Shown here one piece after another: positions 34,056 through 64,000 of a stretch of DNA of 64,000 nt (positions within the stretch are counted from its first letter, which is position 1; each line of letters starts with the position of its first letter). The DNA is from a virus (Duplodnaviria; Caudoviricetes): IMG/VR virus record IMGVR_UViG_3300025671_008697, one strand, 5' to 3'. Made by a program: the position numbers and the translations under genes. Under the pieces are notes generated by a model. That model ran no database searches. It was not told the DNA's origin and worked only from the letters and a program-made list of their open reading frames with translations.

Positions 34056-36350
34056 ATGGTACAATCAAATCCAGACATAGAACGAATTATTGAAATGGCT
34101 ACCAACATTGCCCAAAGTAAACATCACGAGTATGTAACTCTAGAGCATATACTACAAGGCATGTTGGCTTATGACCAATTCGCAGATTTCTTAGGCAAAT
34201 TTGGCGTAGATGTTGAAAGTATGCAAAAAGATCTAGATGCATACTTAGATCGCCAAGAGTATTTAGTTAGTAAAGTATATGATGTTGTACCAAAGAAAAC
34301 ACACAGTCTCGAGCGTGTGTTCAATCGTGCATTTACACAGGTTTTATTCAGTGGCAGGCATAACTTGCAAACAATAGATTTGTTTTTAAGTATCATGACA
34401 GAAGATAAAAGTTATGCTACTTACATAATCAACAAGTATGGTTGCGAGCGTAGCAAACTAGTTAGTTTATGGAACAAAACTTTTCAAGAAAAGCATGGCG
34501 GAAAACGCAGTAAAAACCATGCTGACCAGGTGTTAGCGGAATATTGCGACAACTTAAATGTTCTTGTCAATGAAGGTAAAATTGATCCTGTAATTGGTAG
34601 AGAACACGAGATAGACGAAATCAGCCAAGTTTTAGCCAAACGAAACAAGAGCAATATATTGATGGTAGGTGATCCTGGTGTGGGCAAAACTGCTATTGCC
34701 GAAGGACTGGCACATAAAATTGTTAATCAAGAAGTACCTGCTTACCTTAAAGACTTTACTGTATTCAGTTTAGATATTGGTAGTTTGCTGGCAGGCAGTA
34801 AGTATCGTGGTGAGTTTGAAGAAAAAGTCAAAGAGGTAATGAAAGCATTGACTGTAAAAGGCAACTGTATTTTGTTCATCGATGAAGCACACCAGATGCG
34901 TGGCGCAGGCACAGGCAGTAACAGTGGTCCCGACTTTGCCAACATGATTAAACCTGCATTAACTAAACGCAATGTCAAAGTTATTGCCTCAACTACATGG
35001 GAAGAATACACACAGAGTTTTGAAAAAGACCGTGCGCTAATGCGCCGCTTTTATCGTATGACTGTGGAAGAGCCCACACCTGAAGTTGCTAAAGAAATCC
35101 TAGTAGGATTAAAAGAATACTTCGAAGAGTTTCACGGCGGCGAGATCAGTGCAGAAGCCATCGAAGCCGCAGTAGATCTCAGTGTGCGCTACCAAACAGA
35201 CAAACGACTGCCAGACAAAGCCATTGATCTAATTGACACTGCGGCAGCAAAACTTAAAATCTATACCACAGGTTTTGTTGTACGCAAAAGTCACATTATT
35301 GATGCACTCAGTAAGTTTACTAAGATTCCAATTGAGCAGTTAGACACAGAAGCCACTAAGAACCTCGAAACACTGGAAGGTGACATTAAAGAAAAACTCT
35401 ACGGACAGGATCAAGCAGTGGACAACGTGCTTGAAAAGATTTATGTTAGCCGTGCAGGTTTGAAAGCAATCAACAAACCTGTAGGCACGTTTTTGTTCTT
35501 AGGCCCAACTGGTACAGGTAAAACTGAACTGGCAAAACTGCTGGCAGAAAATTTGGGCATGAAACTGTTACGCTATGACATGAGCGAATACCAAGAACGT
35601 CACAGTGTGGCCAAACTGATCGGTGCACCTCCTGGGTATGTTGGCTACGATGATGGCAATCTGGGTGGCGGACTACTAATTAGTGATGTAGAGAAAAATC
35701 CCAACAGTGTTATCTTGTTTGACGAAGTTGAAAAAGCGCACCCTGACGTCAGTAACGTATTGCTGAGTTTGATGGACGAAGGTGTAGTAACCAGCAGCAA
35801 CGGCAAAAAAGCAGACTGTAGGAATACCATTGTTATTATGACCAGTAACTTGGGTGCTGCCGAAAGCGAACGTAATAGTATCGGCTTTGCCAGTTTGTCC
35901 AAAACAGGCGAAGATGACGCCGCAGTTAAAGAATTCTTTAAACCTGAGTTTAGAAATCGTTTAGACGGCATTGTTAAATTTAACAAACTGGCCACAGAAA
36001 CTGTACGCAAGATTGTGGTCAAGTTTGTTGAAGAAATGAACGACTTGCTCAGTGACAAACGTATCTACGTCGAACTAAGCACCAGCGCCATTGATCACAT
36101 TATTGACAAAGGTTACGATGACAAGATGGGTGCTCGTCCGCTAAATAGAAAAATTAACGAACTTATCAAAGTTCCTTTGAGTAAACGTATATTGTTTGAA
36201 AATTTGCAAAATTGTACTGTAAATGTCGAATATTATGATGGGGATTTACAATTTAACATTACCGAAAACACTTACCTGGTATACCCCACAGACAGCACCA
36301 TAGACGAAAATGGCTATATTATCCTGGACAAAATTAAATCCAACTGTTAA
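34056..36350 (+). CDS. clpA: ATP-dependent Clp protease ATP-binding subunit ClpA
   Basis: HEYVTLEH N-domain, GDPGVGKT, LLAGSKYRGEFE, GPTGTGKTE, GAPPGYVG, SIGF ClpP-docking loop, GARP; TAAATA at 34045-34050. Confidence 0.92.
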   Translation: MVQSNPDIERIIEMATNIAQSKHHEYVTLEHILQGMLAYDQFADFLGKFGVDVESMQKDLDAYLDRQEYLVSKVYDVVPKKTHSLERVFNRAFTQVLFSGRHNLQTIDLFLSIMTEDKSYATYIINKYGCERSKLVSLWNKTFQEKHGGKRSKNHADQVLAEYCDNLNVLVNEGKIDPVIGREHEIDEISQVLAKRNKSNILMVGDPGVGKTAIAEGLAHKIVNQEVPAYLKDFTVFSLDIGSLLAGSKYRGEFEEKVKEVMKALTVKGNCILFIDEAHQMRGAGTGSNSGPDFANMIKPALTKRNVKVIASTTWEEYTQSFEKDRALMRRFYRMTVEEPTPEVAKEILVGLKEYFEEFHGGEISAEAIEAAVDLSVRYQTDKRLPDKAIDLIDTAAAKLKIYTTGFVVRKSHIIDALSKFTKIPIEQLDTEATKNLETLEGDIKEKLYGQDQAVDNVLEKIYVSRAGLKAINKPVGTFLFLGPTGTGKTELAKLLAENLGMKLLRYDMSEYQERHSVAKLIGAPPGYVGYDDGNLGGGLLISDVEKNPNSVILFDEVEKAHPDVSNVLLSLMDEGVVTSSNGKKADCRNTIVIMTSNLGAAESERNSIGFASLSKTGEDDAAVKEFFKPEFRNRLDGIVKFNKLATETVRKIVVKFVEEMNDLLSDKRIYVELSTSAIDHIIDKGYDDKMGARPLNRKINELIKVPLSKRILFENLQNCTVNVEYYDGDLQFNITENTYLVYPTDSTIDENGYIILDKIKSNC

Positions 36351-49791: not shown

Positions 49792-50267
49792 GATTATTTC
49801 AGTTTGAAGCAGAACTGCCACCAGAAGCAATTGAAAAACTTCAACAGTATAAACAGCAACGTCAGCCAACTTATGCAGAACTTAGACGTAAGGCTCTGCA
49901 GGTTGAAGAGTTAGCAGGCATGGCCAAAAAGATTGAAGACCTGCGTGCCAGAGTAGAACGTGTATACGGTGATTTACCTCCAGGCATGCAGGCAGATTTG
50001 GAACTAGCAGATTTATATCCTGTGCCAGAAACAGATCAGGACTATGTTGATCTGAAACAAAGATTTGTAAAAGACATAGCACTACTACAAAATTATGTAC
50101 AGAGCAAACGCAGTCTCTACAAAAGAGAAAGCGTGAACTACAATGGCGCTTTTTGGTTATCACAGGTACAGGGCAGCGATAGTCCTGTTAGCCCAGTTGG
50201 TGCAGTTCCAAAAGCACAACGCATAAATACTAAAAAGGCGCCAATTAATGTTAAGAAATCTGATTAG
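49788..50267 (+). CDS. Hypothetical protein
   Basis: MRLFQFEAE...; C-terminal SPVSPVG. Confidence 0.65.
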   Translation: MRLFQFEAELPPEAIEKLQQYKQQRQPTYAELRRKALQVEELAGMAKKIEDLRARVERVYGDLPPGMQADLELADLYPVPETDQDYVDLKQRFVKDIALLQNYVQSKRSLYKRESVNYNGAFWLSQVQGSDSPVSPVGAVPKAQRINTKKAPINVKKSD

Positions 50268-50679
50268 ACTGGTAGAAGCAGCAGAGCGTAACTGCCCTGT
50301 GGCAACCTACGACATTGACGTCAACCTTAAAAATCGACAGACAGCAATTGACAGTTATCATTACGGTCCTGCTAATCCAGCAGCGCCAGGAAAATATTGG
50401 AAAGATAGTGCCAAGCAGTGGAAGATAGACGAAAAAACTGCAAAGACAATGCTGTGTGCTAACTGTGGTGCATTTGATGTCAGCGACAGTATGCGTGACT
50501 GCATTGCCAATGGTATTAAGGGTGACGAAAAGGCTGTAGATGCAAACGCCAGTATTAACTTAGCAGACTTAGGATACTGTAACTTCTTGCATTTTAAATG
50601 CGCCGGGGATAGAAGTTGCACTGCTTGGATAGCAAATGGCCCCATAACAGAAAAAGACAAAGGCAAGAAGGCAGACTAG
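50248..50679 (+). CDS. Cys-rich conserved phage protein
   Basis: MLRNLIRLVEA; CANC, GYC..LHFKCAGDRSCTAW; TAAATA at 50224-50229. Confidence 0.7.
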   Translation: MLRNLIRLVEAAERNCPVATYDIDVNLKNRQTAIDSYHYGPANPAAPGKYWKDSAKQWKIDEKTAKTMLCANCGAFDVSDSMRDCIANGIKGDEKAVDANASINLADLGYCNFLHFKCAGDRSCTAWIANGPITEKDKGKKAD

Positions 50680-50680
50680 C

Positions 50681-51115
50681 ATGGAAGATTTAATCAAAGC
50701 AATGAAAATTGCATTTAGCACAGAGTTTAGTTTTTATTTAAAAGCACACAATTTTCATTGGAACGTAGAAGGTCCAGATTTTCAAGAGTATCACAAACTG
50801 TTTGAAACTATTTACGAAGAAGTCTACGAAAGCATTGATCCATTTGCTGAAAACATTCGCAAACTGGGCAGTTACACTCCTGGTAGTTACACACGCCTTA
50901 GTATGCTAACACAGATCGACGACGAAACTGGCGTACCACCAGTAATGGGTATGGTAGAAGAACTGTTAAGTGACAGTGATAAGTCCGTCAAAGTATTCAA
51001 GATGGTTTACGACCTAGCAGAACGTGAAGGTGAACACGGTTTGAGTAACTTCCTTGCTGAACGTATGGATGCACATCGTAAACACAGTTGGATGTTAAGA
51101 GCAAGTCTCAAGTAA
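50681..51115 (+). CDS. dps: Dps/ferritin-like DNA-protecting protein
   Basis: FYLKAHNFHWNVEGPDFQEYHKLFE.IYE...D.FAENIRKLG...HRKHSWML. Confidence 0.9.
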   Translation: MEDLIKAMKIAFSTEFSFYLKAHNFHWNVEGPDFQEYHKLFETIYEEVYESIDPFAENIRKLGSYTPGSYTRLSMLTQIDDETGVPPVMGMVEELLSDSDKSVKVFKMVYDLAEREGEHGLSNFLAERMDAHRKHSWMLRASLK

Positions 51116-51117
51116 GA

Positions 51118-51699
51118 ATGCAAACAAAAGACTTTTATGAAGCCAGTCCCAGTACACTAGGCGGGAGTTTTACACCTGACTTAGTAACAAGCAAATTATG
51201 GCTAGCACGTAAGGTGCGTGCTTTAATGACTAAAACTCGTGTCGAAAAATACAAAACAGTATATGTACTGGGCAGTTGGTTTGGTAATATGGCTATATTT
51301 TTGCAGCAAAAAGGTGTTGAATTTGATCGAATAGTGTTAGTAGACATTAACAAAGATTGGATGCAAATTAGCAAAGAACTATTAGAACCAATTACAGACA
51401 AACTAGATACCATAATTCAGGACGCAAACAAAATTACCTATTCTGACCAGCAGCCAATATTAGTAATTAATACCAGTTGTAATGAAATGGCAAATGAGGG
51501 TTGGTTAGACCGTATTCCTGCGGGATCAACGGTTGCTCTGCAGGCTAGAAATAATGTACAATCAGTGGACGTAGTAACAGACACCGTAGAAGAATTTAAT
51601 AATCAATTTCCGTTGAGTGATGTGTTTTACTTGGGCGAGCGTAAACTACGAGATCCGGAAGTTAGTTATCAAAGGTTTATGAAAATAGGAATCAAATAA
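51118..51699 (+). CDS. Class I SAM-dependent methyltransferase-like protein
   Basis: [28 protein letters not shown]; likely ATG 51118. Confidence 0.65.
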
Positions 51700-52907
51700 T
51701 GAAAAAACGCAATTACTCACAGGAAACTGTAGACAAACTCAGAGGCAGTGTACACATTGACCATACCCTGGCTAGACTGGGTGCAAATAAACTACGCCAC
51801 TTGTTAGCCACAGAACCATATATTAACACACTAGGTGCTTACAATGGGCAACAGGCAGTACAACATGCCAAGGCAGGACTTAAAGCAATTTACCTGTCAG
51901 GCTGGCAAGTAGCGGCAGCAAATAATACTGCACTGCAAACTTATCCGGATCAAAGTCTATATCCAGTAAACTCAGTGCCCAATGTGGTAAAAGGTATCAA
52001 CAATGCTTTCCGTCGTGCGGATCAAATTGAACACGTAGAAGGCAACGTGACCACAGACTACTTCCTGCCCATTGTAGCAGATGCAGAAGCAGGGTTTGGC
52101 GGTGCACTTAATGTCTATGAACTTATGATGGCCATGATTGAAGCAGGCGCTGCCGGCGTACACTTTGAAGACCAACTAAGTTCAGAAAAGAAATGCGGAC
52201 ATTTAGGTGGCAAAGTACTAATTCCCACAGGACAGGCAATTCGTAATCTTAATGCTGCACGGCTGGCAGCAGACGTAGCAGGTGTTAGCACAGTTATTAT
52301 GGCACGCACAGATGCAGAAGCTGCGACACTGATTACCAGCAATCACGACCCACTAGACAAGGATTTTATTATTGATGAGCGCACTGAAGAAGGTTTTTAC
52401 AAATTTAAAAATGGTATCGATGCTTGTATTAGCAGAGGTCTTGCTTATGCCCCTTACGCTGATCTCTTATGGTTCGAAACTAGCACACCTGACGTGGCAC
52501 AGGCTAAGAAATTTGCCGATGCCATACATGCCGAGTATCCTGACCAGTTGCTTGCTTATAACTGTAGCCCTAGTTTCAATTGGCGTAAGTTCCTAAGCGA
52601 AGACGAATGCGAAACTTTCCAACGTGAAATTGCTGAACTAGGATTCAAGTTTCAGTTTATTACACTGGCAGGATTCCACAGTGTTAACCTTGCTACATTT
52701 GAACTTGCTGAAGCATATAAACAACGTGGGATGGCAGGCTATGCAGAAATGCAACAACGTGAGTTTGCGGCAGTAGACAGAGGCTTTACCACTGTAAAAC
52801 ATCAACGCGAAGTTGGCGTTAGTTATTTTGACGTTATCAGTGAAGCAGTTGGTGCTACCAGTACCGTTGCTAACAAATCTTCAACAGAAGCAGATCAATT
52901 TCATTAA
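51699..52907 (+). CDS. aceA: Isocitrate lyase
   Basis: [27 protein letters not shown] catalytic motif, [21 protein letters not shown]. Confidence 0.95.
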
Positions 52908-52916
52908 GTATTTACA

Positions 52917-54332
52917 ATGACAATAAATTACTCAGAGCGTATACCTAACAATGTTAATTTAAGTGAAGACAGAGCACTACAACGTGCTCTTGAAGGATGG
53001 CAACCAAACTTTTTAAACTGGTGGCAGGACATGGGACCAGAAGGCAGTACCAACTATGACGTATATCTGCGTACTGCTGTCAGTGTAGATGCACAGGGAT
53101 GGGCACAATTTGACCATGTTAAGATGCCAGACTATCGTTGGGGTATTTTCCTAAACCCTGCTAAAGAAGGTCGCAAGATTCATTTTGGTGATCATAAAGG
53201 TGAAGCGGCCTGGGACAGTGTGCCAGGTGAATACCGTGCAAACCTAAGACGTATTATTGTGACACAGGGCGACACAGAACCTGCGTCAGTGGAGCAACAA
53301 CGGCACTTGGGTTTGACTGCTCCCAGTTTGTATGACCTACGTAACTTATTTCAGATCAACGTAGAAGAAGGCCGTCACCTGTGGGCCATGGTATATTTGT
53401 TACACAAATACTTTGGGCGTGATGGTAGAGAAGAAGCAGAAGACTTACTGGCACGTAACAGTGGTAGCGCAGACAATCCACGTATCTTGGAAGCATTTAA
53501 CGAAAAGACTCCAGACTGGCTCAGTTTCTTTATGTTTACTTACTTTACAGACAGGGACGGCAAGTTTCAGTTAAAAGCATTGAGTGAAAGTGCATTTGAT
53601 CCCTTAGCACGTACTACACAATTCATGCTTACAGAAGAAGCACATCATATGTTTGTAGGCGAGAGCGGCGTAGCAAGGATCCTACAACGCACTGCACAAG
53701 TTATGAAAGAACTTGGCACAGATGATCCGCAACGTTTACGTAGTGCTGGTGTAATTGATTTGCCAACAATCCAACGTTACTTAAACTTCCACTTCAGTAA
53801 GACTGTGGACTTATTTGGTGCAGACGAAAGCAGTAATGCTGCTACATTCTACTCAACAGGACTAAAAGGACGTTATGATGAAGAAAAGCACGATGACGAC
53901 CATGTACTAAAAGACAGTGAGTACAGCGTTTTAAGTGCAGACTTAACAGAGCGCAGTGTACCCATGCTGAATGCACTTAATGAAGTGCTACGTGATGACT
54001 ACATCAAAGACAGTGCCAGTGGCGTTGGACGTTGGAATCGTATTTTAAACAAGGCAGGCATCGACTTTGAACTTACAGTTCCACATAAAGCATTTAATCG
54101 TAACATCGGACCACTAGCAGGCTTAACAATTAGTCCCGAAGGGCGTGTTGTATCACAGGAACAATGGCAGCAAAGTCAGAGCCAGTGGTTACCCACACCA
54201 GAAGATCGTGCATTTGTACAAAGTCTAATGGGCCGTGTTACTGAACAAGGACAGTATGCCAACTACATTGCACCACCTTCTGTGGGTATCAACAAACAAC
54301 CAATGGATTTTGATTACGTAAGGTTTAATTAA
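52917..54332 (+). CDS. boxB: Benzoyl-CoA 2,3-epoxidase subunit B (di-iron)
   Basis: IPNNVNLSEDRALQRALEGWQP, KMPDYRWGI, QGDTEPASVEQQ, EEGRH and EEAHH ExxH ligands; TAAGTA 6 nt upstream. Confidence 0.93.
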   Translation: MTINYSERIPNNVNLSEDRALQRALEGWQPNFLNWWQDMGPEGSTNYDVYLRTAVSVDAQGWAQFDHVKMPDYRWGIFLNPAKEGRKIHFGDHKGEAAWDSVPGEYRANLRRIIVTQGDTEPASVEQQRHLGLTAPSLYDLRNLFQINVEEGRHLWAMVYLLHKYFGRDGREEAEDLLARNSGSADNPRILEAFNEKTPDWLSFFMFTYFTDRDGKFQLKALSESAFDPLARTTQFMLTEEAHHMFVGESGVARILQRTAQVMKELGTDDPQRLRSAGVIDLPTIQRYLNFHFSKTVDLFGADESSNAATFYSTGLKGRYDEEKHDDDHVLKDSEYSVLSADLTERSVPMLNALNEVLRDDYIKDSASGVGRWNRILNKAGIDFELTVPHKAFNRNIGPLAGLTISPEGRVVSQEQWQQSQSQWLPTPEDRAFVQSLMGRVTEQGQYANYIAPPSVGINKQPMDFDYVRFN

Positions 54333-54982
54333 TGTTAGAAACAATCTGTGATACAATGAATCATGCATATCAGCGCGGCTGGATTACCAGTCGTGACGGT
54401 AATGTCAGCATTAGGCATCACGACAGAGATCATTTTTACATTACACCCAGTGGAGTACGCAAGCAAACACTACAGCCTGATCAATTTAAAAAAATTGAAA
54501 TACTTAAACAACCAGTAGAAAACAGGCCATTACCTTTTGAATACAATTGGCGTGAATTAGAGTATACTGACATCAGCCGTAACTTACGGCCAAGCGGAGA
54601 AATTCCTTTACACTTTGGTTTGCAGCGTGAAATACACAGCGACGAAGTAAGAGTGGTCATGCACTTTCATCCCACTTACACCGTGGCTGCTATGCATGCC
54701 GGAATTGAACTACAAGATTTGGTCAAAGACTTTCCTGAACTAAGTAGATATACATCGGTTGCTCCTAATGTACCGGATGTGCCGCCGATCAGTCAACAGT
54801 TGGCAGACTATACAATTGATAGACTTGATGTTTGTCCAATAACTGGTTTGGTAAAGTATGATATTATTGGTATTAAAGGACACGGCGTAGTAGCAGTAGA
54901 TACTACGCCCTGGAGATGTTTTGAACACATTGAACGTTTAGAACATATCTGTCAAATAGTTTTAGCAAGTGGACGACATTAA
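54332..54982 (+). CDS. Class II aldolase/adducin-family protein
   Basis: RDGNVS, ITPSG, PSGE, MHFHP, KGHGV. Confidence 0.85.
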   Translation: MLETICDTMNHAYQRGWITSRDGNVSIRHHDRDHFYITPSGVRKQTLQPDQFKKIEILKQPVENRPLPFEYNWRELEYTDISRNLRPSGEIPLHFGLQREIHSDEVRVVMHFHPTYTVAAMHAGIELQDLVKDFPELSRYTSVAPNVPDVPPISQQLADYTIDRLDVCPITGLVKYDIIGIKGHGVVAVDTTPWRCFEHIERLEHICQIVLASGRH

Positions 54983-54985
54983 AGT

Positions 54986-55615
54986 ATGTTAGTCATCTTG
55001 GGTGACAGTTTCTGCTCTGAAAAGGAGGGCTGGCCTTCTATGCTAGCCAATATGCTTAATACAGATTTTGTTTGTCACGGAACACCTGCTGCTAGTTGGT
55101 GGATTACCTATAAAGATTGTCAAAGATTAGAAAATAAGTTGTCAAATGCAAAAATAATTATATTTTGCCACACACATCCTGCTAGAATATTAACTGAAAA
55201 TTTAAATATTCTTCAATGCGATTATAGAGCAAAATCAAAAAATGAAGAGCAAGCCGCCGGTAGTTTATATATGAAATATATTCATAATCACGAAGTTCAT
55301 GATTGGTCGATGTCTGCTTGGTTTAAGGAATTAAATGAACGGTACAAGCAAGCCACAGTTTTGCACCTATTTGCTTTTGACGATTCAATGAGTCTAGGAA
55401 AATATCTCACCAATGGAATTAAAGCAAAGACATCGCTTACTGAATTAAGTTTATTAGAGTTTTCATCAGATGACATCAATTTGCTGTCAGGCGATAGTAG
55501 AGCAAATCATTTTAGCCAATACAATAACAAAATATTAGCTAAACAAATTTATAATGGATTAATCAATGGTATAGATTTTGATTTTGACAAAAGTGAATTT
55601 AATTTCGGAACTTAA
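54986..55615 (+). CDS. SGNH/GDSL hydrolase-like protein
   Basis: LGDSF N-terminus; ANHFS near C-terminus. Confidence 0.6.
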   Translation: MLVILGDSFCSEKEGWPSMLANMLNTDFVCHGTPAASWWITYKDCQRLENKLSNAKIIIFCHTHPARILTENLNILQCDYRAKSKNEEQAAGSLYMKYIHNHEVHDWSMSAWFKELNERYKQATVLHLFAFDDSMSLGKYLTNGIKAKTSLTELSLLEFSSDDINLLSGDSRANHFSQYNNKILAKQIYNGLINGIDFDFDKSEFNFGT

Positions 55616-55626
55616 ATGGAATAAAA

Positions 55627-56775
55627 ATGGCAATTGATAATAAAATTTTAGAAATATTAGGTAGAGAAGAATACAGGCAAGGCAACACCATAGAACTTAT
55701 AGCAAGTGAAAACTTTGCCAGTGAAGTAGTGCGTAATCTCTGTGCTAGTGTGTTTACCAACAAGTATGCAGAAGGTATTCCTGGCAGACGTTTTTATAAT
55801 GGTTGCGAACACGCAGATGAAATTGAACGTCTGGCAATTGAATACGCTACAACACTGTTTGGGTGTCAATTTGCCAATGTTCAACCACATAGCGGTGCTA
55901 ACGCCAACCTTGCAGTATTCAAAGCATTACTTAAACCTGGAGATGTTATCTTAGGTATGGATCTGAGTAATGGTGGACATCTGAGTCATGGAAGTCATGT
56001 TAACCTAAGTGGTGCTTGGTTCAGAGCTGCCAAATATACATTAGGACAAGATGGCCTAATAGACTATATAGAAGTAGATAAATTGGCTCAAGAACTAAAA
56101 CCTAAATTGATCATTGCAGGTGCTAGTAATTATAGCCAAGTTATCGATTGGGCAAGGTTTAGGCAAATTGCCGACAAAGTAGGTGCAAAACTATTATGTG
56201 ACATAGCACACTACAGTGGATTGATTGCCGGCGGACAATACCCCAATCCTTTCCCACATGCTCATATCGCTACTAGCACTACACACAAAACATTACGCGG
56301 TCCAAGAGGTGGAATAATTCTATGGAACGACAACGATTTATCGGCAAAAATTAACAACGCAGTTTTTCCTGGCACACAAGGCGGACCTTTGATGCATATT
56401 ATTGCTGCCAAGGCACAGTGTTTTCACGAGGCATTGCAAAAAGATTTCAGAGAATACAGCCGGCAAGTTATCTTAAATGCAAAAGCAATGGTAGAAGTAT
56501 TCAAAGAAAATGATGTAGATATAGTTAGTAATGGTACTGAATGTCACATGTTTACTTTAGACTTAGGCAAAGAATCTTATAGTGGAAGACAACTTGCAGA
56601 TAGACTAGAGGAAAAAGGAATTACTGTGAATAAAAATGCAGTACCAGGAGATACCAGAAGTTTTGTTGAAACTAGTGGAATCAGAATTGGCACTGCTGCT
56701 GAAACTACTAGAGGACACAACGAAGAATGGTTTAGAGAACTTGCTCAGAATATTGTTAATATTTTGAGAACTTAA
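55627..56775 (+). CDS. glyA: Serine hydroxymethyltransferase
   Basis: LIASEN, KYAEG, NVQPHSGA, GGHLSHG, TTHKTLRGPRGG (PLP Lys), SGIRIGT. Confidence 0.95.
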   Translation: MAIDNKILEILGREEYRQGNTIELIASENFASEVVRNLCASVFTNKYAEGIPGRRFYNGCEHADEIERLAIEYATTLFGCQFANVQPHSGANANLAVFKALLKPGDVILGMDLSNGGHLSHGSHVNLSGAWFRAAKYTLGQDGLIDYIEVDKLAQELKPKLIIAGASNYSQVIDWARFRQIADKVGAKLLCDIAHYSGLIAGGQYPNPFPHAHIATSTTHKTLRGPRGGIILWNDNDLSAKINNAVFPGTQGGPLMHIIAAKAQCFHEALQKDFREYSRQVILNAKAMVEVFKENDVDIVSNGTECHMFTLDLGKESYSGRQLADRLEEKGITVNKNAVPGDTRSFVETSGIRIGTAAETTRGHNEEWFRELAQNIVNILRT

Positions 56776-56856
56776 CACCTTAGGACCGCTAAGTTAAGGT
56801 GTAGGCGGCTGCTGCCTGTGGGAATCGATTCGCTACCGTGTACCATAAAGTGAGCA
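56775..56856 (+). ncRNA. Candidate structured RNA (three stems plus possible pseudoknot), family unassigned
   Basis: ACACCTT/AAGGTGT stem; AGGCGG/CTGCCT stem; GTGG/CCAT stem whose loop TTCGCT can pair with downstream AGTGAG. Confidence 0.5.
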
Positions 56857-56857
56857 C

Positions 56858-56863
56858 TAAATA
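56858..56863 (+). promoter_or_regulatory. T4-late-like TAAATA box upstream of the sugar operon
   Basis: TAAATA; the same hexamer precedes many genes in the window. Confidence 0.55.
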
Positions 56864-56881
56864 TTTTGTCTTTCAATTATT

Positions 56882-57352
56882 ATGATATTAATTAAACACC
56901 AAACACTTAACGAAGTAAAAACCGTCACCAAACCTTGGGGATGTGAACGCTGGATACAGGCCGGAGATGACAATCATACTTACGTGCTTAAAGAAATTGA
57001 ACTAAACACCGGGTTTAGAACCAGTATACAAGTTCATAGGCAAAAAGCAGAAACTAATTTTATCTTAGAAGGTCGTGGAGAACTTTGGTATTATCCAGAA
57101 TGGTTTGACTGCGAGCGCTACGAACAAGGAAAATATACCCAAAGCGAACTTGATTATATTTTAGCAAATTTAGAGTGCATCGAATATGGGCCAGGAAGCA
57201 CAATGACAATAGAACCGGGCACGATACACAGAATGGTTGCTGTTACAGATTTGCGTTTTGTAGAATCCAGCACCTGTCACTTAGACGATGTTATTAGATT
57301 ACAAGATGACAGCAATCGCAGTCACGGTAAAATAGATTCAGAACACCAATAA
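56882..57352 (+). CDS. Cupin (type II phosphomannose isomerase C-terminal-like)
   Basis: KPWG, RTSIQVHRQKAETNFILEG, EPGTIHRM, DDVIRLQDD. Confidence 0.8.
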   Translation: MILIKHQTLNEVKTVTKPWGCERWIQAGDDNHTYVLKEIELNTGFRTSIQVHRQKAETNFILEGRGELWYYPEWFDCERYEQGKYTQSELDYILANLECIEYGPGSTMTIEPGTIHRMVAVTDLRFVESSTCHLDDVIRLQDDSNRSHGKIDSEHQ

Positions 57353-58896
57353 TGCTAACAGTTTTAATTCTCGCTGCAGGCTACGGTAGACGTATGGGAC
57401 ACTTTAGCCGCATGGTCAATAAAGGCCTTATTCCCTACGACAACAAACCTTTAATCAGTCATATCATCGAACGATTTGATCAGGACACAAAATTTGTAAT
57501 TGCCTGTGGGCACATGGGACAGCAAGTCAAAGACTATGTCAGTGCAGTGCATACAGACAAACAGATTATTTACGTAGATATAGACGACTACGCTGAAGGT
57601 TCAACGGGCCCGGCTACTACAATACAAAAATGTAGTCCACATTTGACTGCGCCATTTATGTGGCTTAGTTGCGACACTGTTTTTGATTTTGATTATAAAT
57701 CTAAAATGGATCACAACTGGATTGGTGTATATCCTGTTGATAGTGCCATAGCCAAAGACTACTGTTGGATTCAAAGAGACGGCGACACCATTACAGATAT
57801 CTACAACAAACAACCCAGCACTACCGCAGTCGACGCTTTTATCGGCTTGATGTACTGCAAGGATACTACATACTTAGACAACTTAAAAGCCAAAGGTGCA
57901 CGTGAAGCCTACCAGGGATTTGATGATAATTTAGAATTACATGCACACACAGTGAGAGACTGGAAAGACTTTGGCACATACGATAAGTGGGTTGAACTAA
58001 GTAGAGGACTTAAGGAAGTTAGTTTTCCTAAACCTGATGAAATCTTTTATCAAGACAATAATAAAATTGTCAAGTTTACCACCGATAGTACACTAACAGA
58101 TAAAAAAGCCAACAGAGCACTACTGAATCCCAACTGCATGCCCAAGGGTATACGCAGAAGCGGACAGTTTTTAGTTTATGATTATGTGGAAGGCGACATA
58201 GTTTACAATAAACTTACTCCTGCTTTGTTTGCCCAGTTACTGGACTGGAGTGAACAAAACCTATGGCGCCGTAAATGGTTCCCTGATACAGATCAAATCT
58301 GTAGGGACTTTTATCAAGAAAAAACACTAAACCGGCTAAATCAATTTAGAGTAAAATACAAGGATTGGAGTGATCCTACTAGTGTAAACAACGTTCCCAC
58401 ACTAAGCATAAATGATTACTTAAACAAAATAGATTGGGAATGGTTGTGCAAAGAAAATGAATGGGCATTTATTCACGGTGATTTTCAATTTGAAAACATC
58501 ATAGCACACGATCAAGGGTTTACCTGCATAGACTGGCGTACAGACTTCGGTGGCAGCAGCTACGGAGACTTATACTATGACCTAGCCAAAATGTTGGGTG
58601 GTATTATGCTGAATTATCAAAGTGTCAAGAAAGGTGATTTAGTTTATGAGGAACAGGCAGAACTGGCAACGCTAAATTACTGCGGCCTTGATGATGCATT
58701 AGATTATAGACAACAACTGCGAGCATGGGTAGAACAGCATAATTTAAATTGGGATAAAGTGGAACTACTTGTTCCTATTATCTACCTAAACATGAGCCCT
58801 TTGCATGATGCACCTTTTGACAAATATCTTTTTGCACTAGCACAATTACGTTTTGCTGAATACTTCAATGAATCTAGAACAAGCAATAGCCAATAA
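57352..58896 (+). CDS. Sugar nucleotidyltransferase fused to APH/choline kinase-like domain
   Basis: ILAAGYGRRM..NKGLIP; WLSCD; HGDFQFENI, IDWR, YDLAK. Confidence 0.85.
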   Translation: MLTVLILAAGYGRRMGHFSRMVNKGLIPYDNKPLISHIIERFDQDTKFVIACGHMGQQVKDYVSAVHTDKQIIYVDIDDYAEGSTGPATTIQKCSPHLTAPFMWLSCDTVFDFDYKSKMDHNWIGVYPVDSAIAKDYCWIQRDGDTITDIYNKQPSTTAVDAFIGLMYCKDTTYLDNLKAKGAREAYQGFDDNLELHAHTVRDWKDFGTYDKWVELSRGLKEVSFPKPDEIFYQDNNKIVKFTTDSTLTDKKANRALLNPNCMPKGIRRSGQFLVYDYVEGDIVYNKLTPALFAQLLDWSEQNLWRRKWFPDTDQICRDFYQEKTLNRLNQFRVKYKDWSDPTSVNNVPTLSINDYLNKIDWEWLCKENEWAFIHGDFQFENIIAHDQGFTCIDWRTDFGGSSYGDLYYDLAKMLGGIMLNYQSVKKGDLVYEEQAELATLNYCGLDDALDYRQQLRAWVEQHNLNWDKVELLVPIIYLNMSPLHDAPFDKYLFALAQLRFAEYFNESRTSNSQ

Positions 58897-59614
58897 AAAA
58901 CGTGAAAAACTATTTGTTAGTTTAGCACTTCGACCTGGACGCACTGGTACTAGATTTTACACACGACTATTCCTGCATCATGAAATAGACGCAGAGTATG
59001 TGGCCTGCGAATGTACAGACATTAAGAAAGATATAGAGTTAGCCAAACAACACTGTGCAGGTATTAGTATAACTATGCCATATAAAACACAGGTGTCAGA
59101 ATTTGTAGATTTTTGGCACGGTTCAAAAGGAATTACAAATACTTTACATTTACAGTTAGGTATTGTAACTGCCTACAACTGTGATGAATCTGCACTTAGA
59201 ACCTGTGTTAACTTTCCAAAATCTGACATGAGTATTAATTTATTAGGTATGGGTGCAATGAGCCAAAACTTTAGGAATATTGCACCTAAAGGCAGTATAA
59301 TTAGACAGTTCGACAGAGCAAATTGGATGTATAGAGTACAACCCTGTGACATGTTAGTGAATGCGACCAGTATTGGGATGAATCCGGAAGAGTCGCCTGT
59401 AGCAGACGTACACAATGCACACGCAGTAATAGACGTGGTGCAAGGGCCCACTAGATTAAAAAAGATTGCAAGGGCAGCAGGTGTACCATTGGTTACAGGA
59501 GAACAACTATACATTGAACAGTTCAAGCAGCAATTCAAAGTTTATACAGGAATTGCGCCAGATAACAAAGTTTTAGAGCAAGTGGCAGAAGAAGTATTTG
59601 ATTATGATTACTAG
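58868..59614 (+). CDS. Shikimate dehydrogenase-like (AroE family) oxidoreductase
   Basis: GISITMPYK, NTL, YNCD, VNATSIGM, EQFKQQF; likely ATG 58868. Confidence 0.75.
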   Translation: MNLEQAIANKKREKLFVSLALRPGRTGTRFYTRLFLHHEIDAEYVACECTDIKKDIELAKQHCAGISITMPYKTQVSEFVDFWHGSKGITNTLHLQLGIVTAYNCDESALRTCVNFPKSDMSINLLGMGAMSQNFRNIAPKGSIIRQFDRANWMYRVQPCDMLVNATSIGMNPEESPVADVHNAHAVIDVVQGPTRLKKIARAAGVPLVTGEQLYIEQFKQQFKVYTGIAPDNKVLEQVAEEVFDYDY

Positions 59615-60074
59615 ATTTATTAGTGACGTAGATGGCTGTTTGAATGACGGAGTCATTTATTGGTCAGAACAAGGTAAACCATTCAAAGCATTTGGTAATT
59701 ATGACCACGATGGTGTTAAAATGTTTCGCAAACACAATATTCCCATTACTTTTATTACTGCGGACAAAGCAGGTTGGAATATTATGTACAGTCGCGTAGT
59801 TGAACATATGAAATGCGACTTAGTGTTAGTACCGGAAGCCAGTAGATACGAATTTGTTGAAAATTATGGATTTGATAACATAGCATACATGGGCGATGGA
59901 TTTTATGATGCTCCTATTATAAAGGCCGCACGTTATGGAATAGCGCCAGCACAGGGCAGAATAGAAGCACGGAATGCTGCCCACTATGTAACACCTAGTC
60001 GAGGCGGTGAAGGCGCTTACTTTGATGCCTGTTTATGGTTATTGGATCAGATGGGAATAGACTATGCAATTTAA
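59598..60074 (+). CDS. KdsC-like HAD phosphatase
   Basis: SDVDGCLNDG, YMGDGFYD, GGEGA. Confidence 0.85.
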   Translation: MIMITRFISDVDGCLNDGVIYWSEQGKPFKAFGNYDHDGVKMFRKHNIPITFITADKAGWNIMYSRVVEHMKCDLVLVPEASRYEFVENYGFDNIAYMGDGFYDAPIIKAARYGIAPAQGRIEARNAAHYVTPSRGGEGAYFDACLWLLDQMGIDYAI

Positions 60075-61041
60075 ATTAGGCTTTGGTCCTATGAGTGTGA
60101 TCGTTAACAGGGCACTGGCAGAATACGCTAGTATGAAACAGCGTCCTCTAATGATAATTGCCAGTAGGAATCAAGTAGATGCCGACAGTGGCTATGTAAT
60201 GCAGACACGGGCGCTGGCTGATCAAATGGAGCCATTGCGTAGTGACTATTTAATGCTGTGCAGAGATCATTGTGGACCCTACTTTTTAGACAGTGAACGT
60301 GAACTGTCAATTAAAGACGCAGTAAACGCTACAAAGAAAACAATTCAAGCAGACATAGAAGCAGGATTTGATTTGATTCACATCGATACCAGCAGATGTG
60401 AAGATCCTTATCCGGTAGCAGACGAATTATTCAACTTTTGTTTGGAACTAAACCCCAATATTAAATTTGAATTTGGCACAGAAGAAAATGTTGGAGTAAG
60501 GGCTGGGGTTAAGAAATACAAAGACGATGTTAGATTTGCCAGTCAATACCCAAACATGGAGTTTGTGGTGGCACAGACCGGCAGTTTGACCATGGAGGAT
60601 AGACAGATAGGCAGTTTTGAACCTGGTTTGGTTAAAAAGTTGGTTGCATTTGCTGAACAGAGTAATGTAAAATTAAAAGAGCACAATGCCGATTACTTAA
60701 CTGCCGAACAGATCCAAATGCGTCGAAACGCAGGAGTACACGCTTGTAACATTGCTCCACAGTTAGGTGTTATACAAACACAGGTAACACTGTCATTGGC
60801 TAAAGAACATAATGTTAACACACATGAATTTGAACGTACAGTATTGGAAAGTAATAAATGGCAAAAATGGATGATCGGTGATAACACAGAAACAAAAATA
60901 CTGGTAGCAGGACATTATTGTTTTGGTTCAAACAGTTATGAAAGACTTTTTGAACAAACACAAAAACACTGCGACTTAGAAGCAGAAATCACGTTAGCAA
61001 TTTATAATTGCTTAGACACTTACTATGAGAACTTATTATGA
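60064..61041 (+). CDS. GatZ/KbaZ-like (class II aldolase/epimerase TIM barrel) protein
   Basis: LGFGPMS, IASRNQVD, CRDHCGP, HIDT, EFGTEE, HNADY. Confidence 0.7.
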   Translation: MQFKLGFGPMSVIVNRALAEYASMKQRPLMIIASRNQVDADSGYVMQTRALADQMEPLRSDYLMLCRDHCGPYFLDSERELSIKDAVNATKKTIQADIEAGFDLIHIDTSRCEDPYPVADELFNFCLELNPNIKFEFGTEENVGVRAGVKKYKDDVRFASQYPNMEFVVAQTGSLTMEDRQIGSFEPGLVKKLVAFAEQSNVKLKEHNADYLTAEQIQMRRNAGVHACNIAPQLGVIQTQVTLSLAKEHNVNTHEFERTVLESNKWQKWMIGDNTETKILVAGHYCFGSNSYERLFEQTQKHCDLEAEITLAIYNCLDTYYENLL

Positions 61042-62132
61042 TTGTATGGTTTAATTGCAAAATTAGTGACATTAGGCTTACGCCACAACCTAGATATCAT
61101 TTACGTACAGACGATAGACTAGATGTAGCCAAATATAGTTTAGCCAGTTTCCGCCCGTTAGATGAAGTGACTTCTAAATGGATCTTTAACTTTGAACTGG
61201 CAGATGGTTGTGCTGGTAAAGAAAAGGAATTTGAAGATTGGATCCGAGAAAACTTTCCTGCAGATAAAACAGTTATAAACTGGTATCGGTGCAATCACTA
61301 TGAGCAATGGCAGGAAATGGCAGATTTAGTTAATGCTGAGGACGATGAGTTAATTTTTCCAGCTGGGAACGAAGATCATATCTTTATGGATACTGATATC
61401 GAACTGTTCAAAGAAGGATTAGAACTTGTTAAAAATGATTCGGACCCAAATGCAGTTTTTTTTACAAGTCATTATCCAGAACTTGCAAGATGTAGTTTTT
61501 ATTTTAACCCAGAAGGCATAACTGAAAATAAACATTTTACATGGTACGTTTTAGGTAGCAATGATGCACTGCGTGTTATGAAAAAAGGCCTTTTTAATGA
61601 ATACGTACAAAAAATTAAGAATAATAAAAACATTTTTTACAGGACTGAAGATTGGAATCAACTCAGTTTGCCTGTTTGTAAAATATATTGTCCAACCAAA
61701 GAACAATTTAGGCACTATGATGGATACGCTCATGTTCGTATAGGTGCAGATATAGCTCCACCATTGGAAATTCCTGCAGGATTTTTTGATAAATCTATGA
61801 CAATTAAATACGGTTTTGATCAGCGTGAAGAAGGCGCAGTAAACATTAACCCACAAATGGAAAGTTTCTTTGCAGAAGATGGCGCCGGCACAGACTATAA
61901 ATTTAGTTTAGAGGATATTCCGTTATTTTGGAAAGAACACATTAAAGAGATTCAAATTAATCCAGACTCTGATTCAGAACAACTTATAGAAGCAAGAGAT
62001 GCTCAATTACTTAAAATGAGTAGATGTGAAGCACATTGGGACTTTATGGGGATTGTTTTTGATAACAATAATTATCCACCAGCAGAAAGAGTAAACTGTT
62101 GGACCAAATCAATTGATTTCACAGACGAATAA
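61038..62132 (+). CDS. Hypothetical protein, possible glycosyltransferase
   Basis: GNEDHIFMD and RHYDGY; last gene of the sugar operon. Confidence 0.55.
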   Translation: MIVWFNCKISDIRLTPQPRYHLRTDDRLDVAKYSLASFRPLDEVTSKWIFNFELADGCAGKEKEFEDWIRENFPADKTVINWYRCNHYEQWQEMADLVNAEDDELIFPAGNEDHIFMDTDIELFKEGLELVKNDSDPNAVFFTSHYPELARCSFYFNPEGITENKHFTWYVLGSNDALRVMKKGLFNEYVQKIKNNKNIFYRTEDWNQLSLPVCKIYCPTKEQFRHYDGYAHVRIGADIAPPLEIPAGFFDKSMTIKYGFDQREEGAVNINPQMESFFAEDGAGTDYKFSLEDIPLFWKEHIKEIQINPDSDSEQLIEARDAQLLKMSRCEAHWDFMGIVFDNNNYPPAERVNCWTKSIDFTDE

Positions 62133-62141
62133 CAGTATAAT
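62113..62141 (+). promoter_or_regulatory. sigma70-like promoter
   Basis: TTGATT(62113-62118)-17 nt-TATAAT(62136-62141); AGGAG SD. Confidence 0.7.
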
Positions 62142-62159
62142 ACAGTCAAGGAGAACACA

Positions 62160-62425
62160 TGTCAGACTACACCCGTACATTTAACGCAGAAGCCAAAATC
62201 AAACTTACACAACTAATCAACGAAGGCATGACTGTCATGCAAGAAATTGAAGATCTCAACGCAGGTTTGAATGATACTATCAAGGCAATCGCAGAAGAAT
62301 TAGAAATTAAACCTGCAACACTTAAAAAAGCAGTAAAGATTGCACATAAATCTAAATTGGGTGAAACCAATCGCGACCACGACGAACTAAACACTATTTT
62401 GGAAACTGTAGGCAAAACACTTTGA
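62160..62425 (+). CDS. T4 DsbA-like double-stranded DNA-binding protein
   Basis: KLTQLINEG...LNDTIKAIAEELEIKPATLKKAVKIAHK; ORF track gives 62159-62425. Confidence 0.7.
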
Positions 62426-62727
62426 CCAAAGCATTTGGTGCTTGGTGGTCAGGCACGCAACAGTTTATCGCAAAGGATTGGAGTAGCCATCCTTTTCGTT
62501 TCTGTTTAGAGATGACTGCGTGGGCAATCAGTATAGGCTGTGCTATAACTTACGCTTATACTGTACCTAATATTCCATTTATACCTTTGTACTGTGCATT
62601 TATCACAGGCTGCGTTATAGGTGCATGGTGTGCTTATACTCGAGGTAGTTTTGGACTTTTTGGAAATTACACCCTGCTCGCAATCATTGACATGACCGGG
62701 CTAATTAAGTTATTATTAATGAAGTAA
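62422..62727 (+). CDS. Small multi-pass membrane protein
   Basis: Three hydrophobic segments. Confidence 0.7.
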   Translation: MTKAFGAWWSGTQQFIAKDWSSHPFRFCLEMTAWAISIGCAITYAYTVPNIPFIPLYCAFITGCVIGAWCAYTRGSFGLFGNYTLLAIIDMTGLIKLLLMK

Positions 62728-62728
62728 G

Positions 62729-64000
62729 ATGTCATACGTAGACGCATTATTTGATAAACAACGTGACAGGATTCACGTAGTAGAACGTGTTAACGGCGAA
62801 CGCCGCTATCAAGAGTTTGCGGCTGATTATACGTTTTACTATGACGATCCCAAGGGCAAGTATCGTACTATCTATGGCACGCCTGTAAGCAAGTTTACAA
62901 CACGCAACGGCAAAGAGTTTCAAAAAGAAATGCGTATCCAAGGCAGCAAGCGTCTTTGGGAAAGCGACTTCAAGCCAGTGTTTAGATGCTTGGCCACAAA
63001 CTTTCTTGGCGCAGAACCCCCAAAACTACAGACAGCATTTTTCGATATTGAGGTAGACTTTGATCCCGAACGTGGATTCAGTAAACCCGAGGATCCATTC
63101 AACGCTATCACTGCTATCAGTGTGTACTTGGATTGGATGGACAAGTTAGTTACACTGGCTATTCCGCCCAAGTCGATGAGTTGGGAAACCGCAGAAGAAA
63201 TTTGTAATAGGCATAGTGACTGTTTCTTGTTTGACAGAGAAGAAGACTTATTAAACACATTCTTAGACTTAGTTGATGATGCTGACATCCTGTCAGGTTG
63301 GAACAGTGAAGGCTTCGACATTCCTTATACCGTGGGACGCATTACTCGTGTGCTCAGCAAAGACGATACACGCAGACTTTGTTTGTGGGGACAGTTTCCC
63401 AAACAACGTGAATTTGAACGCTTTGGTGCCACAAACATTACGTTTGACTTAATCGGCCGTGTACATATGGACTATATGCAACTGTATCGCAAGTATACCT
63501 ATGAAGAACGCCATAGTTACAGTTTGGATGCCATCGGCGAATATGAACTAGAAGAACGTAAAACTGCCTATGAAGGCACACTGGATCAGTTGTACAATAA
63601 AGACTTTGACACATTTATTGAATACAACAGACAGGATACTCGACTGTTAGCAAAACTGGACAAGAAACTCCGCTTTCTAGACTTGGCTAACACCATTGCA
63701 CATGACAACACAGTATTGTTGCAGACCACAATGGGCGCAGTAGCAACCACGGAGCAGGCAATTATCAATGAAGCACACAGCCAAGGACTGGTCGTACCTA
63801 ACAGAAAGAACAGAGATGAGGGGGAAGAAACAACAGCGGCAGGTGCCTATGTTGCTTATCCCAAAACAGGCATCCACGAATACATCGGAGCCATTGACAT
63901 CAACTCGCTCTATCCCTCGGCTATTAGAGCGCTCAACATGGGACCAGAAACCATCGTCGGACAGATCCGACCCGTAATGACTAAAAAGTTTATTCAAGAC
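62729..64000 (+). CDS. Family B DNA polymerase (gp43-like), 3'-truncated by the window (not in ORF track)
   Basis: Read manually from ATG 62729: MSYVDALFD...FFDIEVD (ExoI), GWNSEGFDIPY (ExoII), YSLDAIG, YNRQD (ExoIII), DINSLYPS (Pol motif A). Confidence 0.95.
   Translation, partial: MSYVDALFDKQRDRIHVVERVNGERRYQEFAADYTFYYDDPKGKYRTIYGTPVSKFTTRNGKEFQKEMRIQGSKRLWESDFKPVFRCLATNFLGAEPPKLQTAFFDIEVDFDPERGFSKPEDPFNAITAISVYLDWMDKLVTLAIPPKSMSWETAEEICNRHSDCFLFDREEDLLNTFLDLVDDADILSGWNSEGFDIPYTVGRITRVLSKDDTRRLCLWGQFPKQREFERFGATNITFDLIGRVHMDYMQLYRKYTYEERHSYSLDAIGEYELEERKTAYEGTLDQLYNKDFDTFIEYNRQDTRLLAKLDKKLRFLDLANTIAHDNTVLLQTTMGAVATTEQAIINEAHSQGLVVPNRKNRDEGEETTAAGAYVAYPKTGIHEYIGAIDINSLYPSAIRALNMGPETIVGQIRPVMTKKFIQD

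Follow-up and report, generated by a model that had tools for sequence, protein, structure and literature searches.

A predicted pseudoknotted RNA family of PA5oct-related jumbo phages with conserved unpaired segments antisense to 23S rRNA

The virus record IMGVR_UViG_3300025671_008697 of IMG/VR (Duplodnaviria; Caudoviricetes) was examined over a stretch of 64,000 nucleotides, referred to below as the window. It is a phage-like contig in which almost every gene lies on one strand. The present work concerns a non-coding gap of 106 nt (56776-56881) between two of these genes. Upstream lies a glyA gene for serine hydroxymethyltransferase (SHMT; 55627-56775, + strand), which was taken from the list of open reading frames (ORFs) and matched Pfam SHMT with E = 8.6e-142. 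Downstream, the ATG at 56882 opens a gene for a cupin-fold protein of 156 aa (56882-57352, + strand). Between them an RNA element was located on the + strand at 56775-56855; its first base is the last base of the SHMT stop codon TAA (56773-56775). A first-pass annotation, made from the letters of the window, had proposed a pseudoknotted non-coding RNA (ncRNA) at this place, perhaps a ribozyme or a riboswitch-like element. After comparison with related sequences, the existence of a conserved, pseudoknotted RNA is close to certain. Conserved unpaired segments of it are antisense to 23S rRNA at positions 1910-1937 and 1968-1976.

According to the minimum free energy (MFE) fold the element begins with the P1 hairpin (56775-56802, + strand as for all parts of the element). 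Here ACACC(UUAG) at 56775-83 faces (UUAA)GGUGU at 56794-802. P1 carries the nearly invariant motif L1, CCUUAGGACCG (56778-56788), and also the piece AGUUA (56792-56796), which is complementary to 23S 1911-1915 in the loop of helix 69. The P2 hairpin (56803-56817) follows with a lower stem AGGC 56803-06 / GCCU 56814-17 and an apical loop of 7 nt, GGCUGCU (56807-56813), the partner of the 3' tail. In the P3 hairpin (56818-56846) an internal loop separates the outer stem GUGG 56818-21 / CCAU 56843-46 from the inner stem CG 56826-27 / CG 56837-38, and the 9-nt loop L3, AUUCGCUAC, occupies 56828-56836. The 3' tail AAAGUGAGC (56847-56855) ends with AGC (56853-55), which can pair with GCU (56808-10) of the P2 loop. 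The predicted order is thus P1, a 4-bp P2, P3 and then the tail returning to the P2 loop. The stems drawn in the first-pass annotation, namely P1 ACACCTT 56775-81 / AAGGTGT 56796-802, P2 56803-08/56812-17 and P3 56818-21/56843-46, were all present as given. The same was true for the loop TTCGCT (56829-34), for AGTGAG (56849-54) and for a TAAATA box at 56858.

Relatives of the element were collected with three pattern scans of IMG/VR, each fixing a different pair of conserved blocks and each yielding at least 120 loci. At least about 245 loci or contigs in IMG/VR carry the element, one copy each, and no second copy was found in the 64-kb window. A covariance model (R1) built from 30 members gave exactly one match in each of 100 sources. 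Among 185,579 bacterial and archaeal species genomes the motif combination occurred in one. This match (L147) lies in a metagenome-assembled genome (MAG) of Haliscomenobacter sp. (NZ_JBBAKG010000001.1, a contig of 183 kb, 4113-4193, - strand, 70.3 bits with R1); the contig is either of phage origin and was placed in a Bacteroidota MAG by binning, or it gives a hint at the host. A full-length copy was detected in Pseudomonas phage PA5oct (MK797984.1, 115475-115560, + strand; 32.7 bits with R1 and 47.3 bits with R2), where it begins two bases past the stop codon of EST35_0189. As blastn of one family member against GenBank phages gave no match, the covariance model was needed to find this copy. 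With R1 and/or R2 no match was obtained in eight further cultured jumbo phages, namely Sinorhizobium phage Phosso, Agrobacterium phage Atu_ph07, Vibrio 2.275.O, XaC1, RsoM2USA, SE_PL, CMSTMSU and Ecwhy_1, which is weak evidence.

The family was used to examine the fold. For P1, inspection of the extracts and single-sequence folds indicated that the helix is retained with varying sequence and length; the formal pair counts cover the lower P2 stem, P3 and the pseudoknot pairs, with P1 outside them. In the model-based alignment of 95 distinct sequences standard pairs were found in 95.1% of the cells. The covariation score was 0.656, compared with 0.177 +/- 0.010 for column shuffles (0/500), and it fell to 0.01-0.10 when the partners were slid by 1-3 columns. 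All four pairs of the lower P2 stem covary (GC44/AU30/CG11/GU7, GC61/CG27, CG53/GC36 and CG84/UA2). P3 occurred in 78 distinct sequences, each closing the same 9-nt loop, and each of the seven P3 pairs tested showed changes on both sides. The pair counts for P2 and P3 are inflated by the fitting of this alignment to just these two helices. A model-free MAFFT alignment gave the same picture, with a covariation of 0.307 against 0.137 in shuffles (0/500). Hence the structured, conserved ncRNA postulated in the first-pass annotation, which a lack of homologues or of covariation would have called into question, has gained both.

Folding energy was less informative. The MFE of the element in the window was -23.2 kcal/mol on the + strand, compared with -24.6 +/- 3.4 for dinucleotide shuffles (z = +0.43), and the minus strand of the element gave z = +0.72. 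Across the family the MFE did not separate the strands either (-24.7 on the + and -24.8 kcal/mol on the - strand). An unremarkable z-score of this kind is compatible with a strongly conserved RNA. The strand was assigned by the wobble pairs: across the family G·U or U·G was counted 72 times and A·C or C·A 5 times. Owing to this excess the functional RNA is the + strand, that of the flanking genes.

The same count bears on the possibility that the conserved unit acts as DNA, as a sigma-70 promoter with an upstream stem-loop comparable to the promoter-early stem-loops (PeSLs) of T4-type phages. PeSLs are likewise intergenic stem-loops at variable junctions, and in eight members (L006, L010, L012, L046, L073, L094, L133 and L157) the P3 arms read TTGAC(A/T)-N17-TATAAT, with TATACT in L046. 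For this subclade the P3 sequence may double as RNA helix and promoter. The hexamers are missing from the window and from most members and are nothing more than the two complementary P3 arms, and the ratio of 72:5 shows selection on one RNA strand. Furthermore, PeSLs are multi-copy recombination and promoter cassettes at the DNA level, whereas the element is present once per contig, forms a pseudoknot and covaries specifically on the RNA strand. A DNA cassette is thus largely refuted and has hardly any probability left. A sigma-70 promoter TTGACA-N17-TATAAT, seen in L008, L010 and L012, had been considered as a general explanation and was dropped once the covariation of P3 was seen.

The pseudoknot was confirmed with a changed partner. 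The first-pass annotation had paired the P3 loop UUCGCU with the tail AGUGAG. These six pairs never change on both sides, and the tail remains AAGUGAGC in the L3 classes b and c described below. An H-type pseudoknot exists nevertheless, in which the partner of the tail is the apical loop of P2; it brackets P3 and is predicted to have the core GCU/AGC. The longer P2 stem proposed before, AGGCGG/CTGCCT, holds in its covarying lower part, and its upper two pairs compete with this pseudoknot. No support was seen for the alternative pairing of CCGC with GCGG.

Several observations argue for the pairing of P2 loop and tail. The pseudoknot pair 49-133 (alignment A3) occurs as CG77/GC7. Matched changes of loop and tail lead from GGCUGCU/AGUGAGC to GGGUGCU/..GACC (7 sequences) and GACUGCU/..GAGU. 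In divergent members both partners are replaced as a whole, as in GCCAC/GUGGC, GCUAC/GUAGC and CCUACA/UGUAGG; further replacements are UCUCCCUG/CAGGGAGA, GCCCCAU/AUGGGGC and, in PA5oct, GCUGU/GCAGC. Each of these cases is weak when taken alone. Shuffle tests on single sequences were underpowered, with p from 0.01 to 0.99, and were replaced by a permutation at the level of the family. Among 36 members with non-canonical loops, the own tails fitted P2 better than permuted tails (3.97 compared with 3.47 +/- 0.12, 0/500). As the pseudoknot is absent from the covariance model, this evidence is independent of model fitting.

No named family could be assigned, in agreement with the first-pass annotation. 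At gathering thresholds, Rfam 15 matched nothing anywhere in the window. When E was relaxed to 10, three unrelated chance matches were obtained for 56600-57050; one of them, antisense_SR1 (13.7 bits compared with a gathering score of 45), clips the first bases of P1. Four other members including PA5oct showed no Rfam match at E up to 1. ARAGORN detected neither a tRNA nor a tmRNA in the window. A scan for intrinsic terminators over 50000-64000 called no site in 56775-56881, where the tail is followed by ACUAAAUA, so that the earlier judgement against a simple terminator was borne out; a run of at least four T within 12 nt of the tail was present in only 30 of 160 members.

The complementarity to rRNA was verified on rrlH of E. 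coli K-12. L1 matches 23S 1920-1930 antisense in 11 of 11 positions, a region made up of the 3' strand of helix 69 and the junction. L1 was nearly invariant also in the first scan, in which it had been left unfixed. Within the commonest L3 loop AUUCGCUAC, the segment UUCGCUAC matches 23S 1930-1937 in 8 of 8 positions. Together L1 and L3 span one continuous stretch of 18 nt. A third segment is found in the long-type members, whose insert after L1 carries GUUAC, UAGUUAC, GUUAU or similar sequences complementary to the helix 69 loop. A stretch of 5 nt or more that is antisense to 23S 1908-1920 was present in the insert of 129 of 151 long-type members, compared with 20% of shuffles; for 7 nt or more the values were 15% and 0.8%. 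L258 and some others contain CCUUAGGACCGUUAUAG, a continuous 17-nt antisense to 23S 1914-1930. At best, coverage reaches 26 of the 28 nucleotides of 23S 1910-1937.

The variation of the loops is consistent with such a target. The scan that left L3 unfixed yielded different L3 classes. In class a, NNNCGCUAC, the part CGCUAC that pairs with 1930-1935 is fixed and the first three bases, which face A1936-A1938, are free to vary. In class b, (A/U)ACGCCAUUC, 9 nt are complementary to 23S 1968-1976; the probability that a random 9-mer lands anywhere in 23S 1900-1990 is 0.0003. The L1 variants A5>G and A8>G and the L3 variant C9>U retain G·U pairs with the target. Duplex energies of the loops alone were -20.3 kcal/mol for L1, -10.9 for L3a and -14.5 for L3b, each at the expected 23S site. 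With the full-length element, duplexfold against 23S gave -66.1, hardly different from the -63.8 of shuffles. Long loose duplexes dominate in this calculation, and therefore only the loop-alone energies are meaningful. A copy of the target sequence was found neither in the window nor in the fetched phage loci. Other rRNA matches were rejected. A 10-nt match of P2 GCGGCUGCUG to 16S 519-528 is coincidental, since P2 varies and covaries with the tail, and 7-nt matches of the tail and of P2 to 23S 1099 and 1070 are at chance level.

Pairing of the loops with host 23S rRNA is, from these sequence comparisons, the best-supported mechanism and in our judgement moderately probable. It is favoured because no other idea explains three to four separate unpaired blocks and an alternative loop class all directed to one region of 70 nt in a single, universally conserved RNA. 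Conserved unpaired segments complementary to rRNA, and variants that keep this complementarity, are what would be expected of an RNA antisense to rRNA, and both were found.

The L3 classes also speak to a new self-cleaving ribozyme or another RNA-processing signal, which would cut polycistronic phage transcripts between genes and of which the conserved loops would form the catalytic core through tertiary contacts. The compact pseudoknotted fold with highly conserved unpaired bases on covarying helices would suit a ribozyme, and so would the intergenic position in phage genomes, where small ribozymes are generally known to be common. At least three unrelated L3 classes exist, and L3 is missing in two members while the rest is unchanged, which is hard to square with a catalytic core. 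No ribozyme model of Rfam matches, which leaves the ribozyme of the first-pass annotation a functional guess without support, and the rRNA complementarity would need to be chance, which is very unlikely. In view of this a catalytic or processing function appears improbable.

The continuous 18-nt stretch covered by L1 and L3 is the core of the I-CeuI site. The loops might accordingly belong to a guide RNA that directs a DNA- or RNA-cutting enzyme to host rRNA genes or rRNA, for host shut-off or nucleotide scavenging. They cover CGGTCCTAAGGTAGCGAA, a verified sequence that forms this universally conserved core and occurs in every rrl copy, and guides split between loops have known precedents in EBS1/EBS2 of group II introns and in the bridge RNAs of IS110. 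No gene for a nuclease, a recombinase or a reverse transcriptase was consistently nearby. Moreover, the segments are short and partly structured, and variants compatible with wobble pairs suit pairing of RNA with RNA better than with DNA. A guide function is therefore regarded as very unlikely. The likeness to group II introns extends to two loops which address adjacent targets in the same 5'-to-3' order, L1 the upstream and L3 the downstream part. The element has neither D5/D6 domains nor a reverse transcriptase and comprises only about 80 nt.

The position of the element relative to genes was compared for the family. A long ORF upstream of the element ends between -6 and +17 nt from L1 in 155 of 193 members; in 32 of these 155 the stop codon is the UAG inside CCUUAGG, so that the gene runs into the element. 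After the tail, 160 distinct members were inspected. Of these, 53 had an ATG within 22 nt and no visible Shine-Dalgarno (SD) sequence and 37 had a sigma-70-like promoter; a T-run was present in 30 and other sequences in 40. Among about 93 neighbours, the proteins encoded upstream formed 28 clusters and those encoded downstream 38, and the annotations were unrelated (SHMT, radical SAM, ferritin/Dps-like, LysM/endolysin-like, kinase, cupin). As the flanking genes vary, the element is a module in its own right and not the regulator of one gene. A constant downstream gene family or pathway, as expected for a riboswitch or leader, was not found, and no riboswitch model matches; this argues against the riboswitch-like element suggested earlier.

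The protein cluster of the cupin in the window accounts for only 5 of 92 downstream neighbours across the family, so its adjacency to the element is not conserved. In four independent contigs the element lies upstream of cupin homologues and the gene before it differs. The SHMT locus L002 of another viral contig, whose SHMT is 65% identical, has an ordinary promoter instead of the element. In L094 the element is preceded by an SHMT gene, as in the window.

Two rivals arise from this position. In the first, the element would be a cis-acting ribosome tether, in which the rRNA complementarity holds a large subunit or post-termination ribosome for reinitiation at the next gene, in analogy to the TURBS of caliciviruses and influenza B described below. 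In most members the stop codon lies 3-13 nt before L1 or is the UAG inside L1. The 53 of 160 members with an ATG at most 22 nt from the tail have no promoter or U-run there, and in many members the next gene begins about 10 nt past the tail without SD sequence. On the other hand, the complementarity is to 23S and not to 16S rRNA, and the target strand is paired inside the assembled ribosome. Reinitiation is also not the general role, since the next gene has its own sigma-70-like promoter and a normal SD sequence behind the element in 37 of 160 members; in the window the ATG of the cupin gene lies 26 nt beyond the tail, behind the TAAATA box. Tethering in cis seems about as improbable as self-cleavage.

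In the second, L1 and L3 would be recognition sites for a conserved phage or host protein, and the element a regulatory site at the gene boundary. A translational repressor, an RNase, a termination or antitermination factor or, as with the put RNA of HK022, RNA polymerase could be the partner; the match to rRNA would be incidental, or the protein would read both RNAs. Invariant loops on variable helices are typical of such sites. The location at a gene 3' end in 155 of 193 members and, in 160 inspected members, often just before a promoter (37) or a U-run (30), fits a role in the ending or processing of transcripts. This explanation leaves three unpaired segments and an alternative L3 class, all antisense to one rRNA region, unaccounted for, and a protein binding rRNA would not bind its complement. 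Besides, none of the adjacent protein genes was found to be conserved; the closest genes that are, for an 86-aa DsbA-like protein and the family-B DNA polymerase (PolB), are 0.1-6 kb off in freshwater contigs and about 100 kb off in PA5oct. A protein-binding site is unlikely, if less so than a ribozyme or a tether.

Several points weigh against pairing with 23S rRNA as well. L3 class c, AGUCGUGC, has at most an ambiguous 6-nt match to 23S, and L3 is absent altogether from two loci. The coincidental 16S match of P2 shows that such matches can mislead. In many members, the one in the window included, part of L1 (CCUUAG) is paired inside P1. Each scan had fixed two of the three motifs, so that the invariance of the loops was measured on biased samples. 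The tight abutment to the upstream stop codon is left unexplained by a purely trans-acting RNA. In the mature 70S ribosome the target region sits at the interface of the subunits, with 1920-1924 base-paired in helix 69; an immature or free 50S subunit and strand invasion would thus be needed for pairing. Finally, an RNA-seq study of PA5oct reported four ncRNAs (PMC7318152), and the element is not among them.

Known systems share single features with the element. The TURBS (termination upstream ribosomal binding site) of caliciviruses and influenza B is also a viral motif at a stop/start boundary with unpaired bases complementary to a conserved rRNA loop. It pairs over about 5 nt with helix 26 of the small-subunit 18S rRNA in eukaryotes and lies upstream of overlapping stop and start codons, whereas the phage element is a pseudoknot of about 80 nt downstream of the stop codon, matches up to 26 nt of 23S and often has no coupled gene behind it. 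Bacterial antisense RNAs and sRNAs with bipartite kissing of two hairpin loops, such as OxyS-fhlA and CopA-CopT, also present seeds in loops of a structured scaffold and make two contacts with one structured target, but these targets are mRNAs or plasmid RNAs and the complementarity of the element is to 23S rRNA. Box C/D and H/ACA guides of archaea and eukaryotes contain 8-12 nt antisense to universally conserved rRNA sites, often two per RNA for neighbouring positions. Neither C/D boxes (RUGAUGA/CUGA) nor an H/ACA pocket nor an ACA box occurs in the consensus of the phage family; its antisense segments are in terminal loops and its fold is a pseudoknot. As far as known, the partner proteins of these guides are absent from bacteria and from these phages. 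A peptide nucleic acid (PNA) directed against helix 69 shares this rRNA hairpin as its antisense target. This compound is short, synthetic and without structure, while the phage RNA is natural and bi- or tripartite and reaches helix 70 or 1968-1976. In general, the element as a family fails the defining features of each analogous system.

The gene content relates the family to jumbo phages. Some contigs with the element measure 300-350 kb. In 92 of about 103 loci the DsbA-like protein of 86 aa (phrog_639 / phrog_12534) is encoded 0.1-6 kb downstream, and in 48 of these 92 a PolB of 886 aa is next after it. The closest cultured polymerases, with about 50% amino-acid identity, are those of Phosso, PA5oct, Atu_ph07 and the Asteriusvirus group, all of them jumbo phages. 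Judged by these sequence relationships, the element is assigned to a new, single-copy family of structured RNAs from jumbo phages akin to Pseudomonas phage PA5oct. In the window a DsbA-like gene (88 aa, about 62159-62425) precedes the PolB gene (62729-64000), whose product is about 50% identical to the polymerases of Phosso and PA5oct. Directly before the latter gene lies a strong sigma-70-like promoter, TTGACA-18-TATTAT (62687-62716, 11/12). In PA5oct (L148, 216595-221821) the DNA polymerase is annotated in two parts with a gene for a Hef-like homing endonuclease between them.

Some further features of the window were recorded. All sequencing runs containing it were freshwater metagenome DNA runs. 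The element is embedded in a run of auxiliary metabolic genes (51699-60074), which also comprises genes for a PaaA/PaaC-like di-iron protein (52917-54332), a class II aldolase (54332-54982), a fused nucleotidyltransferase/kinase (57352-58896), a shikimate-dehydrogenase-like protein (58853-59614) and a HAD hydrolase (59598-60074). An ORF of 764 aa at 34056-36350 matched the ATP-dependent protease family phrog_4871 of PHROG with E = 4e-244; its weaker matches were ATPase and clamp-loader PHROGs.

The TAAATA box noted in the first-pass annotation is real and belongs to a motif enriched before ORF starts. It is located at 56858-56863 on the + strand (CTAAATA from 56857), 24 nt before the cupin ATG and outside the RNA fold. 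In the window (A/C)TAAATA occurs 32 times on the + and 11 times on the - strand; of the 32 copies on the + strand, 11 lie 7-40 nt before ORF starts, an interval comprising 3.4% of the positions (p = 5e-9). Examples begin at 7702, 8614, 13508, 16346, 28790, 34045, 38627, 50224 and 56858. ATAAATA is kept at the same place in cupin homologues of other contigs, even without the RNA element. The box at 56858 is a candidate phage promoter element, and the boxes resemble late promoters of T4-type phages (TATAAATA).

Returning to the rRNA complementarity, the following mechanism is proposed. The RNA would be transcribed together with the flanking genes, beginning at the stop codon of the upstream gene. 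Exposed on the pseudoknotted scaffold, L1 and L3, joined in most members by the insert that follows L1, would serve as antisense seeds for a universally conserved stretch of host 23S rRNA. Of these, the insert would pair with the helix 69 loop (23S 1910-16), L1 with the 3' strand of helix 69 and the junction (1920-30) and L3 with the start of helix 70 (1930-37) or, in the second loop class, with 1968-76. The likely target would be 23S rRNA outside the 70S ribosome, i.e. in an assembling pre-50S particle or a free 50S subunit. There the RNA would probably block the formation or use of bridge B2a and hence subunit joining or 50S maturation.

Helix 69, of which bridge B2a is formed, lies open in free 50S subunits, folds late in assembly and participates in decoding, termination and recycling. 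As cited in PMC7038079, a synthetic PNA antisense to helix 69 inhibits the growth of E. coli (Kulik et al. 2017). Thus, helix 69 is targetable in cells, and together with its role in B2a, its exposure and its late folding this makes a block of 50S maturation or of subunit joining the simplest outcome. We hold it somewhat more probable than the contrary that a phage RNA pairs with host 23S rRNA from a pseudoknotted scaffold. The comparisons show the family, its fold, its strand and the complementarity; pairing in the cell, the form of 23S rRNA bound and the benefit to the phage are what we infer. The more specific proposal, that PA5oct-related jumbo phages encode an 'anti-helix-69' RNA which captures 23S rRNA at the bridge B2a region in pre-50S or free 50S particles and controls ribosome maturation or subunit joining, is put forward tentatively and falls a little short of being probable.

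To our knowledge, no natural bacterial or phage RNA is known to base-pair with large-subunit rRNA, and a literature search for one that targets it in this way found none. A description of the present family was not found in the literature either, although the motif may be contained, with no function assigned, in a catalogue (PMC10690425) of over 10,000 candidate RNAs from viruses. Whatever the mechanism, a large new RNA family with a fold supported by covariation (at least about 245 contigs) has been identified, and its member in the cultured, genetically tractable PA5oct (host P. aeruginosa PAO1) makes the question directly testable. If the pairing is true, the element would be the first known case of a natural RNA that targets bacterial large-subunit rRNA through base pairing. 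It would also offer a natural template for antisense inhibitors directed at rRNA and a probe of late 50S assembly. For these phages it would mean that a virus acts on the bacterial ribosome by RNA and not by protein, at a highly conserved central hairpin, and with such a universal target one design would work in any host.

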